From NCBI GenBank assembly GCA_945879065.1, contig CAMCUU010000004.1:73-64072 (forward strand): a DNA stretch of 64,000 bases, written 5' to 3'. The stretch's first letter is position 1. Each line of letters begins with the position of its first letter. The position numbers and the translations under genes were made by a program. The stretch is from Francisella tularensis subsp. holarctica (lineage in GTDB: Bacteria; Pseudomonadota; Gammaproteobacteria; Francisellales; CACEW01). Below the pieces are notes generated by a model. It ran no database searches. It saw nothing but the letters and a program-made list of their open reading frames with translations, and was not told where the DNA came from. Below, in pieces: positions 17,492-37,795 of this stretch.

Positions 17492-18481
17492 GTGCATCGG
17501 TCTTTGGCAGCTTCTGGTTATATTCAAATTTTGCTCACACTGGTTTTAAAACTGGGCGTGGCTTTTTTTGCTTTTTCTATGCTGGGTGTTTTGAGCGCTG
17601 GAGTAGCGTATGCGGATGATGCTTGCACGGCGAACAGTATGTCTTGTGAAGATTCTCTCTACCCCGTCAATTGTACTGCTGATCAAGGGGCGCAGCTCAA
17701 TGCAGACTGTCATTTGAGCAGTACTATTAGTGCCATGTGCCCAACCGACACTAGTTGTACTGGGAAGACCTGCAGTCCCAATACTGATCCGAAATATAAT
17801 AATCAGCATTATTTTGTTTTAACGTGTCAAAGTAATGCGCAGACTTACTCCTGGGCAAAAAATTTCTTAGTGAATTTTCTAGACCCGTTTTATACCCTGA
17901 TTATTGTCTCTACGCGCTTGATTGGAATTTTCTTGGTGTTCGTGGGTATTACTCGTCTGCGTCGCATGGGCCAACAAAACATGATGCATCGAACTTCTCC
18001 AGCAGCCACGACGGCTTATTTTTTCGTCGGCTGTATTTTTACGGCATTTATGCCCGAGCTCTTAGCTTTTAGTAATGCCATTTTTGGTTCAGGGACCATT
18101 CAGTCGGGTACGCAAACTTTTACAGGGTCTAATCCAGATTTAACCTATGCCTGTTCTTCTTATACTCCCAATCCTGATGCTGGAAGTAGTGGTTTAGCTT
18201 CGCATGTCAATTGCCCTGTCTTGGGTTATTACAATGACATTGTTAAAAATCAAACAACTTATGCGAGTGATGCAGCAGCGACTTTGATGCAAGTCGTTTA
18301 CGCTATTCTCTTAGTAGTAGGGCTGATTTCTTTTTTACGCGGCTGTTTATTTTTGCTAAAACTGGGCGAAGGCAATTCGCAAGAAAGTTCCGTTCAAAAA
18401 GCAGTGGTTCATATGGTGGCTGGAATGATTGGAATGAATGCAGAGGCCTTTCAAACTTTAATCAGTGGGGTCTTGCCCTAA
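17492..18481 (+). CDS. IcmC/DotE-like membrane protein with Cys-rich N-terminal extension
   Basis: Signal peptide ('AYA/DD'), a region with about 10 Cys, then two copies of the IcmD-type module (TM, basic loop, TM): 'ITRLRRMGQQNMMHRTS' and 'LKLGEGNSQESSVQK'. Confidence 0.45.
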   Translation: MHRSLAASGYIQILLTLVLKLGVAFFAFSMLGVLSAGVAYADDACTANSMSCEDSLYPVNCTADQGAQLNADCHLSSTISAMCPTDTSCTGKTCSPNTDPKYNNQHYFVLTCQSNAQTYSWAKNFLVNFLDPFYTLIIVSTRLIGIFLVFVGITRLRRMGQQNMMHRTSPAATTAYFFVGCIFTAFMPELLAFSNAIFGSGTIQSGTQTFTGSNPDLTYACSSYTPNPDAGSSGLASHVNCPVLGYYNDIVKNQTTYASDAAATLMQVVYAILLVVGLISFLRGCLFLLKLGEGNSQESSVQKAVVHMVAGMIGMNAEAFQTLISGVLP

Positions 18482-18536
18482 GTTTTAATTTTATTTTTTA
18501 TTTTTATTTAAGTTTAGTCATGGAGGTTATTGAGCA

Positions 18537-18974
18537 ATGAGTGCAGAGTTTTTAAACAAAGTTAAACAGTCTGGAAAGTCTTTTTTAATTTTAGGATTAT
18601 TGGGTTTTTCAGTGTCTGTTTTTGCAAACCCAACTCCTCCAGCCGACTTTTCGCAGCTCACGACCAATATTTCAAATTTGGAATTTCAGATTTTAAAAAT
18701 CGTTCAAGTAGTTGTGACGCTGGCGGGTATCTTATTAGCGTTTAGAGGTGTGATTCATTTGAAACAACATGCGCATGGTTCACCTCAAGAAAAACATTTG
18801 CCCAAGGGTATTGCGAATATTGTTTTCGCCGCTTTGTTATTTATGGTCGTGCCTTTGATCCATATGTTTGTGGGTACTTTGAGTCAGGGTGTTGGTGGCA
18901 CTACAAATTACAATAGTTGGGATGCAGGCGACGCGGATAGCGCTGGTAATCTTGCGACGATTTCTGGTGGTTAA
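18537..18974 (+). CDS. IcmD/DotP-like small membrane protein, paralog 1
   Basis: Signal peptide, then TM, 'HLKQHAHGSPQEKH' loop and TM. This resembles the IcmD 'KFKQHKDNPTQ' loop as I recall it. Confidence 0.55.
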   Translation: MSAEFLNKVKQSGKSFLILGLLGFSVSVFANPTPPADFSQLTTNISNLEFQILKIVQVVVTLAGILLAFRGVIHLKQHAHGSPQEKHLPKGIANIVFAALLFMVVPLIHMFVGTLSQGVGGTTNYNSWDAGDADSAGNLATISGG

Positions 18975-19011
18975 TCAGTTTTTATTTTCTTGGCGCGGAT
19001 TTATTTTCGTA

Positions 19012-19027
19012 TGCTAAGATCCGGCGC
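19012..19027 (+). promoter_or_regulatory. Extended -10 promoter-like motif TGcTAAGAT + ccggcgc between the two icmD-like paralogs
   Basis: Exact member of the recurrent motif. TTGGCG lies 19 nt upstream. Confidence 0.45.
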
Positions 19028-19075
19028 TTTTTGTTTTAGTTTTGGTATGAATTGGTAAAGACAGGGGTTTAAATA

Positions 19076-19504
19076 ATGATGAATACAAAGTTTCTAAGGT
19101 TCTCTGGAAAAGCTTTATTGGCCTTAGGGCTTTTAGGCGTGTCAGCCTCTGTTTTTGCCTCACAGCCCAGTGATTTCTCACAATTGACTAAGAATGTATC
19201 AAACTTGGAGCTTTCGATTTTAACGATTGTTCAGGTAGTCGTGACGCTGGCCGGTATTTTACTGGCGTTTAGAGGCGTGATTCATTTGAAACAACATGCG
19301 CATGGTTCACCGCAAGAAAAGCATTTGCCCAAGGGTATTGCGAATATTATTTTCGCGGCTTTGTTATTTATGGTTGTGCCCTTGATTCATATGTTTGTGG
19401 GTACTTTAAGTAATAATGTTGGTGGTGGAAGTTATAATGCCTGGGATGCCAGTGGTGCCGATAATGCTGGTTCGCTTAATAGTGGTGGCGCAACACCTAC
19501 TTAG
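19076..19504 (+). CDS. IcmD/DotP-like small membrane protein, paralog 2
   Basis: Central ~60 aa essentially identical to paralog 1. N- and C-termini diverge. Confidence 0.55.
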   Translation: MMNTKFLRFSGKALLALGLLGVSASVFASQPSDFSQLTKNVSNLELSILTIVQVVVTLAGILLAFRGVIHLKQHAHGSPQEKHLPKGIANIIFAALLFMVVPLIHMFVGTLSNNVGGGSYNAWDASGADNAGSLNSGGATPT

Positions 19505-35971: not shown

Positions 35972-36000
35972 TTTTTTTTAAATTTTTTATTTTTTATTTT

Positions 36001-36051
36001 TTATTTATTTTTATTTTTTATTTATTTTTATTTTTTATTTATTTTTATTTT
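36001..36051. repeat. Perfect 17-bp AT-only tandem repeat (ttatttatttttatttt x3) between icmB and icmP
   Basis: Three identical units read directly. A degenerate copy precedes them at about 35985. Confidence 0.95.
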
Positions 36052-36069
36052 TTAGGGATTAAATAAACC

Positions 36070-37176
36070 ATGAGTGGTCAAAACCAAATGGGTTCCGGGG
36101 GCTATGGTGACGGCCAAGAGATGAATATTATTTATCTCGCTGTTGGGGTCATCGCGCTTTTTTTAATTTTTGGGTATGTGTTTTATGCCCAATTAGTCCA
36201 GGCGATTTTTTTTGTTAAATTTAACGAATTAAAATTTATTTCTTTCTTTGTTCGAAGTACGGATATTCAGGGTGTGATTAACTGGGGGAGTCAAATTCCC
36301 TATCAGAAAGTCAAAATTAATGATCTTGAAGGCTTATTTGAAGTTGTTGGGTTTTATTTGAAATACCCCTTAAGTTTAATCGGCCTGGGTTTGGGTATTT
36401 TCTTAATGCTTAGGCATCCCGATAAGGGCTATAACACGATTGAAACTATGGAAACTTTGCGTGGAAAAATGACGCCTGTCTACCCGGCTATTACGGTCGT
36501 TCAAGATCAAAAAGTAGATCAGCAATCTATAGAACAAGGCCCGTGGGCCATGGGTTTAACGCCCATTGAGTTTGCTAAGAAAAATAAATTACTGTATCGC
36601 GATGTGTCAGGCGCTATTAAAGTTGATGGTCTAAGAGCGAAAGCTGTTTTTGCAGGTCAACTAGGGCCCTTGTGGACTGGAATTAAAAATTTACCGCCGC
36701 ATCAAAAAGCCTTATTTGCAGTGCTGGCGACTTATGTCAATTACGAGCGAAAAACAGCGGATAAATTATTAGAACAAATGGCTGGTTCTGCGACTTTAAG
36801 TAATGTCAAAGCAGGGAAAGTTAATTATTCAGGCATTGATGAAGTATTAAAACGCTTTGGGACTAGTCCCTCGGTAAAACAAATTATTAGTCATCATGCG
36901 CACGTGTATACCATTTTTGCTGAGCTATTAACCACGGCAAGAAAAACAGGGATTGTCGCAAATTCTTTATATCTTTGGTTAAAGCCTCTAGACCGACCTC
37001 TCTGGTATGTTTTAAATAATGTCGGACGAAAAGCGGTGTTTACAGAAACAGCGGCGGTGCATGCCCATTGGTTAGCTGAAAGAGAGCTAGGTTACGCCAT
37101 TAAGACCCCCATGATTGACCCGGTGATTGCGGGGCTAGAAGAAGCGGTAGCTTCGAGAATTATTAAAGATATTTAA
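36070..37176 (+). CDS. icmP: IcmP/DotM (TrbA-like) coupling-complex membrane protein
   Basis: 368 aa. N-terminal TMs followed by a large cytoplasmic domain. Size and context fit. Sequence-level recognition is weak. Confidence 0.6.
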   Translation: MSGQNQMGSGGYGDGQEMNIIYLAVGVIALFLIFGYVFYAQLVQAIFFVKFNELKFISFFVRSTDIQGVINWGSQIPYQKVKINDLEGLFEVVGFYLKYPLSLIGLGLGIFLMLRHPDKGYNTIETMETLRGKMTPVYPAITVVQDQKVDQQSIEQGPWAMGLTPIEFAKKNKLLYRDVSGAIKVDGLRAKAVFAGQLGPLWTGIKNLPPHQKALFAVLATYVNYERKTADKLLEQMAGSATLSNVKAGKVNYSGIDEVLKRFGTSPSVKQIISHHAHVYTIFAELLTTARKTGIVANSLYLWLKPLDRPLWYVLNNVGRKAVFTETAAVHAHWLAERELGYAIKTPMIDPVIAGLEEAVASRIIKDI

Positions 37177-37213
37177 AGTTTTTTTATAAATTAAATACTG
37201 GCTGGACTGACTC

Positions 37214-37795
37214 ATGAAACTTGTATTGCAATCCATTGGAAATAACTGGGAAAAATTTAAGCAGCGTAAAAAATCGGCGGTGTTTGCTAAAGTCCGAGCC
37301 AATATTTTGGCGCGCGATAATTACACCTGTCAGTTTTGTCGATTTGAATCGCCTAGTTTAGAAATTATTAATCGAGACAATGACTACAGTCATAATCAAG
37401 AAAAAAACTTTGCGGCCGCTTGTTCTCTTTGTGCCAAATGTACTTTATTAGATTCTTATTCAATTGATTATGCAGGCGCCGATAAAATAATTTACTGCCC
37501 AGAGTTATCGCAAGAACAGCTGAATCAATTAACCAGATTATTAATGTGCCATACCTACGGCAAAGACAGTGATGAAATTTACAACGCCAAGATAACAATG
37601 GCTCAGCTACAAGATCGGGCTGTTTGGCTAGATGAAAAAGCGGGCTGTAAGCTCTCTCATCCGGCTTTATTTATTCACTATATGCACTCGCGTCAAAGCG
37701 ATAAGCAACTGGTCGGGCGCTTAAGATGGCTGCCCAGCCCCGTGGACTACGAAGAAGAAATTAAGCACTGGCAGAGTGTGATATTTGAAGCGTAA
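37214..37795 (+). CDS. icmJ: IcmJ/DotN zinc-binding coupling-complex protein
   Basis: 193 aa. Cys pairs 'CQFCRF' and 'CSLCAKC'. Confidence 0.7.
   Translation: MKLVLQSIGNNWEKFKQRKKSAVFAKVRANILARDNYTCQFCRFESPSLEIINRDNDYSHNQEKNFAAACSLCAKCTLLDSYSIDYAGADKIIYCPELSQEQLNQLTRLLMCHTYGKDSDEIYNAKITMAQLQDRAVWLDEKAGCKLSHPALFIHYMHSRQSDKQLVGRLRWLPSPVDYEEEIKHWQSVIFEA

Follow-up and report, generated by a model that had tools for sequence, protein, structure and literature searches.

The window, as we call the whole 64-kb stretch of DNA that was analysed, carries a genuine, intact and chromosomal Dot/Icm system (T4BSS) of the effector type, encoded in a single compact locus of 19 genes that spans 20.3 kb (positions 17492 to 37795). 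It is not a conjugative element. The explanation that best accounts for the whole, and that we consider likely, is an intact Piscirickettsia-type Dot/Icm system with the gene order standard in its clade and with dotA and icmV elsewhere in the genome. The order is odd at first sight yet normal for the lineage, and it has largely been published already for Piscirickettsia, a pathogen of fish; the locus is therefore not a link between plasmids and pathogens. The labels of relatives and the trees of T4BSS proteins suggest that the DNA belongs to an uncultured gammaproteobacterium of the “deep-branching intracellular” radiation related to Piscirickettsia and Francisellaceae.

Every ORF was found at the position and in the order given by the first-pass annotation, which had counted 19 genes in about 20 kb. 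Its identification of the icmD pair, dotDCB, icmT, icmO, icmL and icmS/W/K/E/G/B/P/J was upheld by matches to profiles, PDB structures or homologues, and the translational overlaps it gave (4, 8, 14 and 14 nt) were confirmed, with icmT starting at 22112. The genes of the locus and one neighbour are:

17492–18481 (+): IcmC/DotE-like inner-membrane protein, 329 aa, homology over residues 126–324
18537–18974 (+): small membrane protein of IcmD/DotP type, first copy, 145 aa (hhalign)
19076–19504 (+): small membrane protein of IcmD/DotP type, second copy, 142 aa (hhalign)
19570–20073 (+): DotD lipoprotein, 167 aa, lipobox LSAC (PF16816 85.5 bits; NF033882 119.5 bits)
20070–20966 (+): DotC, 298 aa, 4-nt overlap with dotD (PF16932 T4SS_TraI 229.8 bits)
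21001–22119 (+): DotB hexameric ATPase, 372 aa, Walker A GATGSGKS (TIGR02524 461.7 bits)
22112–22366 (+): IcmT, 84 aa from ATG 22112, 8-nt overlap with dotB (NF038220)
22406–24703 (+): IcmO/DotL type IV coupling ATPase, 765 aa, Walker A GSTGSGKT (PDB 6SZ9; PF12696)
24846–25619 (+): lineage-specific orphan U257, 257 aa from TTG or 248 aa from ATG 24873
25663–27789 (+): U708, 708 aa, Ala/Pro-rich, soluble, fast-evolving, with positional orthologues
27885–28505 (+): IcmL/DotI, 206 aa (PF11393 121.7 bits; NF038072 173.5 bits)
28526–28849 (+): IcmS adaptor, 107 aa (PDB IcmS structures)
28874–29320 (−): IcmW adaptor, 148 aa, opposite in strand to the other genes of the locus (PF23130 79.4 bits; NF038222 91.3 bits)
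29563–30561 (+): IcmK/DotH outer-membrane core protein, 332 aa (PF12293 184.9 bits)
30548–31948 (+): short IcmE/DotG, 466 aa, 14-nt overlap with icmK (NF033900 208 bits; PDB 7MUC)
31996–32973 (+): IcmG/DotF, 325 aa (NF038218 81.9 bits, below cut-off)
32960–35971 (+): IcmB/DotO VirB4-family ATPase, 1003 aa, 14-nt overlap with icmG (homologues at the icmB position)
36070–37176 (+): IcmP/DotM coupling-complex protein, 368 aa (NF033890 316.6 bits, cut-off 230; PF23127 188 bits)
37214–37795 (+): IcmJ/DotN coupling-complex protein, 193 aa (NF038221 133.7 bits, cut-off 100)
38952–39806 (−): Rab-like small-GTPase-domain protein, 284 aa, C-terminal CaaX box CAVM (PF00071 Ras)

The IcmC/DotE-like protein, which matches no Pfam or NCBIfam profile, has four TM-like segments and starts with a signal/TM segment and a Cys-rich extension of ~125 aa. 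Its residues 126–324 match the ~180-aa ORFs that take the place of icmC in the loci of Legionella and Berkiella (E 5e-7 to 5e-11), as well as a 341-aa gene of P. salmonis (31%, E 3e-18). The two IcmD copies align with the Legionellales icmD-position family (hhalign probability 92%, E 5.6e-7); their genes are a tandem duplication (254 nt at 85% identity), relative L004 having a single copy. Comparison of DotC N-termini revealed neither signal peptide nor lipobox in the window, across its clade or in P. salmonis, a feature that counts against our preferred explanation since DotC is an outer-membrane core protein. IcmT scores 62.1 bits with the IcmT/TraK model NF038220 (cut-off 40) and is annotated on the source contig as an 84-aa gene with PF28014. 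DotB is 57.7–58.6% identical to its P. salmonis counterparts and 52.6% to that of L. adelaidensis.

The effector adaptors IcmS and IcmW and the DotL-DotM-DotN coupling complex reported by the first-pass annotation are indeed present, as supported by PDB and NCBIfam/Pfam matches. DotL aligns with PDB 6SZ9 (E 1e-247, residues 5–617 against 2–613) up to a non-alignable C-terminal tail of ~150 aa. Residues 2–99 of IcmS match PDB 5X90, 5XNB and 5X1E (full-length match, E 2e-7), and the IcmS orthologues of relatives carry PF12608. In L016 and L012 icmW is encoded on the plus strand; in L008 no icmW lies between icmS and icmK. DotG, noted previously for its short length, is composed of a TM segment, a low-complexity linker and a VirB10-like C-terminal domain; only this domain aligns with the DotG model (NF033900 positions 710–1006, 208 bits; TraO model 68.7 bits) and structure (L. 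pneumophila DotG residues 854–1045 in PDB 7MUC). Relatives have DotG proteins of 397–504 aa. The IcmG C-terminus is 35–47% identical to the products of icmG-position genes of P. salmonis and Berkiella-type loci. IcmB matches TIGR00929 weakly and has its Walker A motif (GSGKS) at ~490; its alignments with the products of icmB-position genes of Legionella, Berkiella and P. salmonis span 96% or more of its length, at 43–57% identity. Walker motifs are intact in the ATPases of the locus. Judged from sequence comparison, strong purifying selection acts on the core genes (dN/dS 0.02–0.2 for seven genes between the window and L072, rough figures because dS is saturated (>1)).

Neighbour-joining trees of IcmB, DotB and IcmO place the window in a clade (support 100, 92 and 94%, respectively) of uncultured bacteria labelled “Thiotrichales/Francisellaceae”. 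The sister of this clade is P. salmonis (100% support); Legionellales and Berkiella come next, and IncI1 and Undibacterium fall outside. The closest labelled relative by IcmL is a “Thiotrichales bacterium” MAG (80% identity), followed by P. salmonis, “Francisellaceae” and Facilibium (40–46%) and by Legionellales, Legionella and Coxiella included (~30%). IcmB identity is 87% to L004, 57% (56.7%) to P. salmonis, 43–49% to Legionellales and Berkiella-type loci and 26.6% to IncI1 TraU. By these trees the proteins of the locus nest within the effector-type Dot/Icm radiation, far from IncI plasmids. The same gene order was seen in nine or more uncultured relatives (listed: L004, L006, L008, L016, L025, L055, L058, L066, L069, L072, L073) and is thus ordinary for the clade, contrary to the unusual hybrid order initially proposed.

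A single compact cassette with a given gene order has been published for P. salmonis (PMC5671498). It shares with the window the identical icmC-(icmD)-dotD-dotC-dotB-icmT-icmO block, the icmK-icmE-icmG, icmP-icmJ and icmL-icmS blocks, a DotG of ~400 aa, the adaptors IcmW and IcmS, and a DotC without signal peptide. The order standard in the clade is a block permutation of this cassette: in the window icmL-icmS-icmW(−) precedes icmK-icmE-icmG, icmB follows icmG and icmP-icmJ comes last. The window also differs by its duplicated icmD, by two orphans between icmO and icmL, by the lack of dotA and icmV within the locus, and by having one cassette where P. salmonis has two or three.

The order is unlike that of L. 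pneumophila, as the first-pass annotation had pointed out, and Coxiella likewise differs. Legionella-type loci read icmT...icmP-icmO-...-icmL-icmK-icmE-icmG-icmC-icmD-icmJ-icmB, and in Legionella dotDCB lies in a separate place from icmT...icmB. [quoted passage not shown] The window DotG lacks the ~600-residue N-terminal/repeat part of Legionella DotG. A scan of window ORFs of at least 120 aa, that at 62977–63927 (−) excepted, agreed with the earlier statement that icmX, icmQ/R, icmN/DotK, icmM, icmF and icmH are not there. Of these, icmQ and icmN (PMC8896642), and icmX and icmM/DotJ (PMC11338181), have been described as gains peculiar to Legionellales or to Legionella. The earlier view of a minimal T4BSS is not supported: several of the missing genes are among these reported gains, and the loss of dotA and icmV from the locus is derived.

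The lack of the genes reported as gained in Legionellales, the TraO-sized DotG (TraO has 429 aa) and the runs dotD-dotC-dotB-icmT and icmL...icmK-icmE-icmG, equivalent to IncI1 traH-I-J-K and traM-N-O-P, would also suit an evolutionary intermediate between IncI-type conjugative and Legionella-type effector systems, as first suggested. We find this highly improbable. IncI1 (R64-type) Tra/Trb has homologous parts but is a distant outgroup in the trees, with a TraU only distantly related to the window IcmB; it carries the NikB relaxase, nikA/oriT, traL/S/V/W/X/Y and excA and has no IcmS/IcmW, whereas the adaptor and coupling module (IcmS/IcmW/DotM/DotN) is complete in the window. Dot/Icm models outscore those of IncI (DotB 461.7 against 250.5 bits for TraJ, DotG 208 against 69 bits for TraO). 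The plasmid-like runs and the short DotG are real, but their hybrid meaning is not supported, as these traits already occur in P. salmonis or in Berkiella-type loci (L032, L033, L036, L050). The latter, chromosomal and effector-type, have both runs in the order icmO(−)-icmP(−)-dotD-dotC-dotB-icmT-icmL-icmK-icmE-icmG-icmC-icmJ-icmB; they belong to another clade, grouped with Legionellales, and differ by upstream inverted icmO and icmP, by icmC after icmG as in IncI, and by a DotC with a lipobox. Since the runs are shared by P. salmonis and Berkiella-type loci, they are best read as retained ancestral synteny.

The gap between icmO and icmL is occupied in most relatives by icmV-dotA, whose products match NF038219 (IcmV) and NF033886/TIGR04346 (DotA). 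In all four members of the window's sub-clade neither gene is in this slot, which holds two fast-evolving orphans; L016 has kept icmV there but not dotA. A profile scan and tblastn with the DotA and IcmV of relatives found neither gene in the window, as annotated previously, and neither occurs in the 10 kb that precede it on the contig. Because most relatives carry both in the locus, their absence is a derived loss from it and not a primitive state. The icmV-dotA module has left the slot in this sub-clade, where the two lineage-specific genes remain. Both were rightly annotated as unknown (the first as 248 aa, from ATG 24873). U257 has no match in Pfam, NCBIfam or PDB and only three cluster representatives among 1.84 billion proteins; it is soluble and has the conserved motif C..H..D..HG...CDD and positional orthologues in L072, L004, L073 and L006. 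Its AF2 model, predicted from the single sequence, is too poor to be used (pLDDT 41). U708 matches no family profile or PDB entry, has no detected TM segment and raises local GC to 47.7%. Its positional orthologues have 768, 779 and 844 aa; identity to that of L072 is 31%, against 93% for IcmB of the same pair.

The absence of both genes would also be expected if the sub-clade had truly lost DotA and IcmV, leaving a DotA-less machine (U257/U708 perhaps substituting) or a decaying system. Protein and metagenome searches returned DotA and IcmV of other lineages and none of the same species, but their recall was low, only 8000 word-sharing candidates being scored. We regard such a loss as unlikely: the 17 recognisable genes are all intact in four lineages diverged to ~80% IcmL identity, the core has the low, if rough, dN/dS given above, and U257 occurs together with DotA in L006 and is thus not its replacement. 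To our knowledge, DotA/TraY is needed in the T4BSSs studied. Purifying selection on the core and the dotA modules that stand alone on related contigs (L051, L052, L053) argue that dotA probably lies at another site in the genome, as icmV probably does too.

If the system works like that of L. pneumophila, DotC, DotD, DotH, DotG and DotF would form an envelope-spanning core, with DotI, IcmT, DotE and DotP in the inner membrane and DotO and DotB energising the channel. The DotL-DotM-DotN complex and the IcmS-IcmW pair would recruit effectors to be injected into a eukaryotic host, probably a protist.

The locus is flanked by housekeeping genes (surA, lptD, ftsH, def, fmt, greA, prlC on one side; epmB, acs, suf, typA on the other) over 17 kb upstream in the window plus the further 10 kb of contig, and over 26 kb downstream; icmJ and epmB converge with a 35-nt overlap. 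A serine invertase gene (40008–40640), downstream flanks that vary between relatives and the multi-copy P. salmonis cassette could hint at a conjugative or integrative mobile element with relaxase and oriT just beyond the window. This is extremely unlikely given the housekeeping flanks, the effector adaptors and a GC content close to that of the flanks. The ORF profile scan bore out the reported lack of a relaxase: neither this nor a further Dot/Icm part was found among window ORFs of at least 120 aa, that at 62977–63927 (−) excepted, and no tRNA, att-like repeat or flanking direct repeat was found around the locus. The Rab-like CaaX protein adjoining the locus has Rab10, Sec4, Rab8 and Rab1 as best PDB matches and is a candidate effector that the system may translocate.

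[quoted passage not shown] Pfam and NCBIfam models named 12 of the 19 (DotD, DotC, DotB, IcmT, IcmO/DotL, IcmL, IcmW, IcmK, IcmE/DotG, IcmG, DotM and DotN), the DotC family being T4SS_TraI (Pfam) and IcmW matching PF23130. DotM and DotN scored 316.6 bits and 133.7 bits in NCBIfam (cut-offs 230 and 100, respectively). DotB scored 461.7 bits with TIGR02524, which is 1.6 bits below the equivalog cut-off of this model, versus 250.5 bits with the NCBIfam plasmid TraJ model (cut-off 368), scores that place it in the Dot/Icm type and not in the plasmid TraJ type. IcmS matched the crystallised L. 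pneumophila IcmS (PDB) over its full length (E 2e-7), while DotL aligned with PDB 6SZ9 over residues 5-617 (E 1e-247), leaving an unalignable tail of ~150 aa. IcmE/DotG is represented by its C-terminal VirB10-like domain only (NF033900 positions 710-1006), which aligns with L. pneumophila DotG residues 854-1045 (PDB 7MUC). IcmB/DotO (1003 aa) carries a Walker A motif; it had no match in the PDB and no family match except a weak one to VirB4, and shares 43-57% identity, across no less than 96% of its length, with the genes in the icmB position of Legionella/Legionellales, Berkiella-type and Piscirickettsia salmonis loci. The first gene (329 aa) codes for an IcmC/DotE domain (residues ~126-324) preceded by a Cys-rich N-terminal extension. 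It is followed by a tandem duplicate of ~145-aa genes (18537-18974 and 19076-19504; 254 nt at 85% identity) whose profile matched the IcmD-position family of Legionellales with an hhalign probability of 92%. This duplication is recent; the related locus L004 (80% IcmL identity) has a single copy. All five core complex proteins (DotC, DotD, DotH, DotG and DotF) were matched by Pfam/NCBIfam, with the caveat that DotC has no signal peptide, and the DotL-DotM-DotN coupling complex is complete in the locus together with the IcmS-IcmW adaptors.

Relatives of the system were identified with IcmL, a search for which yielded uncultured relatives whose identity declines gradually from 100% to 45%. In the IcmL scan used to name the nearest ones (one genome per GTDB species), the closest was a 'Thiotrichales bacterium' MAG (80% identity), followed at 40-46% by other Thiotrichales and Gammaproteobacteria MAGs, P. 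salmonis, which has three loci per genome, 'Francisellaceae' SAGs/MAGs and Facilibium subflavum. The IcmL of Legionellales and Berkiella is only about 30% identical to that of the window. Comparison of gene order by tblastn maps and gene calls defined a common arrangement, icmC-icmD-dotD-dotC-dotB-icmT-icmO-[variable slot]-icmL-icmS-(icmW)-icmK-icmE-icmG-icmB-icmP-icmJ, present in loci L004/L010, L006, L008, L016, L025, L055, L058, L066, L069, L072 and L073 as far as each of them extends. The order of the window, described as hybrid at first reading, thus recurs in at least 11 independent loci and is ordinary for its clade, although this exact permutation is confined to uncultured organisms.

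The P. salmonis system is a single ~22-kb cassette ordered icmK-icmE(397 aa)-icmG-icmC-(icmD)-dotD-dotC-dotB-icmT-icmO-x-icmP-icmJ-icmW-icmB-x-dotA-x-icmL-icmS-icmV, essentially as already published (PMC5671498). The window locus is a block permutation of it. Both share the icmC-icmD-dotD-dotC-dotB-icmT-icmO block, a short DotG, a DotC without signal peptide and a sister phylogenetic position; they differ in that the blocks are permuted and that dotA and icmV are not in the window's locus. Berkiella-type loci have the order dotD-dotC-dotB-icmT-icmL-icmK-icmE-icmG-icmC-icmJ-icmB, close to that of IncI1 (traH-I-J-K...M-N-O-P-Q-R-(S)-T-U, confirmed on an annotated IncI plasmid). Given the orders in P. 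salmonis and in Berkiella-type loci, the runs and the short DotG that had been called plasmid-like are therefore best read as ancestral synteny kept in several effector-type lineages, and a characterised pathogen is already known to have them.

Neighbour-joining trees (200 bootstraps) of IcmB, DotB and IcmO agree in pairing the window with L004 at 100%. The uncultured loci around this pair form a clade with support of 100%, 92% and 94%, respectively. This clade is sister to P. salmonis (100%), with Legionellales and Berkiella next out; IncI1 and Undibacterium, included in the IcmB tree only, fall outside. IcmB is 56.7% identical to its P. salmonis counterpart versus 26.6% to IncI1 TraU. For DotB the identities are about 58% (P. 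salmonis), 52.6% (L. adelaidensis) and about 40% (Xanthomonas plasmids). Grouping with TraJ, TraU or TraO was not found, and the TraJ and TraO models fell well short of their cut-offs and were outscored by the Dot/Icm models. Because of these trees and of the IcmB and DotB identities, the proteins of the locus are of the effector Dot/Icm type, neither plasmid-like nor intermediate. One of the loci with the full window-type arrangement, L025 (CAMARA010000007.1, with DotA after icmS), comes from a lake MAG deposited as 'Francisella tularensis subsp. holarctica'. This label is probably wrong since the genus Francisella is mostly without T4BSS (PMC8896642, PMC11338181).

The locus lies among chromosomal housekeeping genes of a 77.6-kb metagenome contig. 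Upstream are found surA, lptD, djlA, dut, rsgA, ftsH, fmt, def, a small biosynthetic cluster, greA, prlC and a histidine kinase gene; downstream are epmB, a Rab-like gene, an invertase gene, acs, the suf operon, typA, ubiB and prmA. The GC content is close to that of the flanks except in the Ala/Pro-rich 708-aa gene. No tRNA was found in the window and no att-like repeats flank the locus. A scan of all window ORFs of at least 120 aa, except 62977-63927 (-), detected no relaxase family, in agreement with the first-pass annotation, and no further Dot/Icm component beyond the locus. In the IncI1 reference nikB and nikA adjoin trbC; the window is without these genes and contains no MOBP relaxase (NikB) nor nikA/oriT linked to tra/trb. 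The first-pass view is partly supported: the system is compact, chromosomal, effector-type and non-conjugative, and its description as hybrid, minimal or intermediate between IncI conjugative and Legionella effector systems is not supported in light of the IcmB and DotB trees and identities and of the shared gene order. The locus represents the Piscirickettsia type of Dot/Icm system in an uncultured lineage, with two modest peculiarities: the icmV-dotA pair is gone from the locus and DotC has no export signal across the clade.

The first peculiarity maps to the slot between icmO and icmL. In most relatives it holds an icmV gene (NF038219, 109 bits) followed by a dotA gene coding for 1050-1230 aa (NF033886/TIGR04346), as in L006, L008, L018, L055, L058, L066 and L069. 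In L016 icmV alone remains, and in L025, Facilibium and P. salmonis dotA is found elsewhere in the cassette. The sub-clade formed by the window, L072, L004 and L073 (IcmL 91%, 80% and 81% identical to the window for the last three) has neither gene in the slot, which we read as a derived loss from the locus. The earlier statement that dotA and icmV are missing was borne out by tblastn with the relatives' DotA and IcmV, which gave no match in the window; neither gene occurs there or in the 10 kb of contig before it. Absence of IcmQ, IcmN/DotK, IcmX and DotJ is expected because IcmQ and IcmN/DotK are inferred to have arisen within Legionellales sensu stricto (Hugoson et al., PMC8896642) and IcmX and DotJ are listed as Legionella-specific (2024 review, PMC11338181). 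The slot of the sub-clade is a hot spot occupied by an orphan gene of ~210-270 aa and a gene for an Ala/Pro-rich protein of 700-850 aa:

24846-25619 (+): U257, small orphan gene of the window
25663-27789 (+): U708, gene of the window coding for the Ala/Pro-rich protein
24846-27789: slot hot spot, window
L072:527-3667: slot hot spot, L072
L004:6890-9885: slot hot spot, L004
L073:303-3496: slot hot spot, L073

The DotA of the window species was not found. A protein search with the L006 DotA gave 6 matches, a C-terminal DotA profile gave 5, and a JGI metagenome scan gave 17 loci; these, like the looked-up entries P0044, P0049 and P0051, all led to other samples or lineages; the recall of these searches (word index and patterns) is low and the negative result accordingly weak. 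We favour relocation of dotA rather than its loss because the core genes are intact (dN/dS of 0.02-0.2 relative to L072, with saturated dS), because four diverged lineages retain the whole gene set, and because the related metagenome contigs L051, L052 and L053 carry stand-alone dotA modules, often as tandem duplicates. It is unlikely that the sub-clade has a machine without DotA and IcmV or, alternatively, that its hypervariable two-gene slot codes for a rapidly co-evolving host-facing component or gatekeeper. If true, this together with the DotC lacking an export signal would mean a Piscirickettsia-type apparatus assembled unlike the Legionella paradigm. The stand-alone modules of L051 and L052 (L051:1037-11469 and L052:4300-12935) lie away from any core T4BSS genes. 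The L051 unit consists of a ~230-aa gene, a ~1066-aa DotA gene and a ~300-340-aa partner and is duplicated in tandem in its entirety, with 70% identity between its two DotA copies. The second DotA copy of L052 is split.

The slot genes diverge fast: between species with 93% identical IcmB, U257 and U708 are 44% and 31% identical, and in other relatives the slot accommodates one to six different genes. U257 has only 3 cluster representatives among 1.84 billion proteins, features a conserved core with Cys/His/Asp, yielded no match in Pfam, NCBIfam and PDB profile searches, and its AF2 single-sequence model, with a pLDDT of 41, is too poor for use. The same searches gave no informative match for U708, which has no TM segment. 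A role of the U257-type small orphan as DotA replacement was ruled out because it also co-occurs with dotA in L006. Such fast change next to a conserved machine would agree with host-exposed or effector-like proteins.

The second peculiarity is found in DotC (20070-20966), an outer-membrane core protein that here begins directly at the conserved domain without signal peptide or lipobox. The whole clade of the window shares this feature with P. salmonis (L004, L016, L025 and L070, the last being the P. salmonis locus), unlike in Berkiella-type loci, L042 and IncI1 TraI, all of which have an L-x-G-C lipobox. A DotD-DotC frameshift fusion as the explanation was rejected as unsupported: a slippery site is lacking, and DotC is preceded by no more than 6 open codons (1-2 in P. 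salmonis).

By homology with L. pneumophila, DotC, DotD, DotH, DotG and DotF would build the envelope core, and DotI, IcmT, DotE and DotP the inner-membrane part; DotO and DotB would form the cytoplasmic ATPase stack and DotL-DotM-DotN with IcmS-IcmW the substrate receptor. Directly downstream, at 38952-39806 (-), is encoded a 284-aa protein with a Rab-like small-GTPase domain. Its best PDB matches are Rab10, Sec4, Rab8 and Rab1, its P-loop is apparently degenerate, the DTAGQ motif is kept, and its last four residues, CAVM, are a CaaX prenylation motif. Among the effectors of Legionella, eukaryote-like proteins bearing CaaX boxes form a recognised class. The protein looks like a eukaryote-mimicking, host-prenylated effector candidate and would support, short of proof, a host-manipulating lifestyle. 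Translocation of effectors into eukaryotic cells is predicted from context, through the IcmS/IcmW adaptors and this neighbour.

The locus adds a well-sampled, uncultured and probably protist-associated lineage to the carriers of effector-type Dot/Icm systems outside Legionellales. IcmS, IcmW, IcmC, IcmD and, in the relatives, IcmV occur throughout this clade sister to Piscirickettsia; Hugoson et al. (PMC8896642) inferred that Legionellales sensu lato acquired them at its base. Their distribution bears on the timing of the origin of the effector-coupling module and on its possible spread by transfer, and the movable icmV-dotA module with the adjoining hypervariable slot provides handles for studying the evolution of the machine's periphery. 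Current views are not overturned and the value of the locus is comparative.

Several other elements of the window were recorded. The cluster at 8279-13169, with an NTP_transf_5 nucleotidyltransferase, an ABC exporter, an HprK-related kinase (TIGR04352-like) and a lasso-peptide B2-type protease domain, suggests peptide modification and export; no cyclase was detected in it. The gene of an orphan EnvZ/CpxA-like histidine kinase (345 aa; 16321-17358 (-)) diverges from the first T4BSS gene, at a distance of 133 bp, and shares 41 nt with the end of prlC. It has no adjoining response regulator, its arrangement beside the locus was not seen in relatives, and a regulatory link to the T4BSS is speculative. 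The locus is followed, 2 kb downstream, by a serine invertase gene. PF01637 (ATPase_2) genes recur, in the window as in relatives, beside T4BSS or dotA modules. The invertase and PF01637 entries are:

40008-40640 (+): window, serine invertase gene
42829-44133 (-): window, invertase/PF01637 entry
58171-59598 (-): window, invertase/PF01637 entry
L006:19779-20618: invertase/PF01637 entry
L051:11585-12703: invertase/PF01637 entry

Compared with shuffles, the scanned sequence had fewer promoter-like sites and only a slight excess of terminator-like ones. Long phased T-rich tracts (TTTTTA/TTTTTTA units) occupy several intergenic spacers of the locus just 5' of start codons (18482-18515, 19501-19557 and 35957-36065), with an A-rich counterpart after greA (13738-13799); they may represent curved DNA or a leader element. 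The short DotG has in its N-terminal half an (SGSN)n linker, encoded at 30857-30922 by a perfect (TCTGGCTCTAAT)n repeat, which could be a length-variable region.
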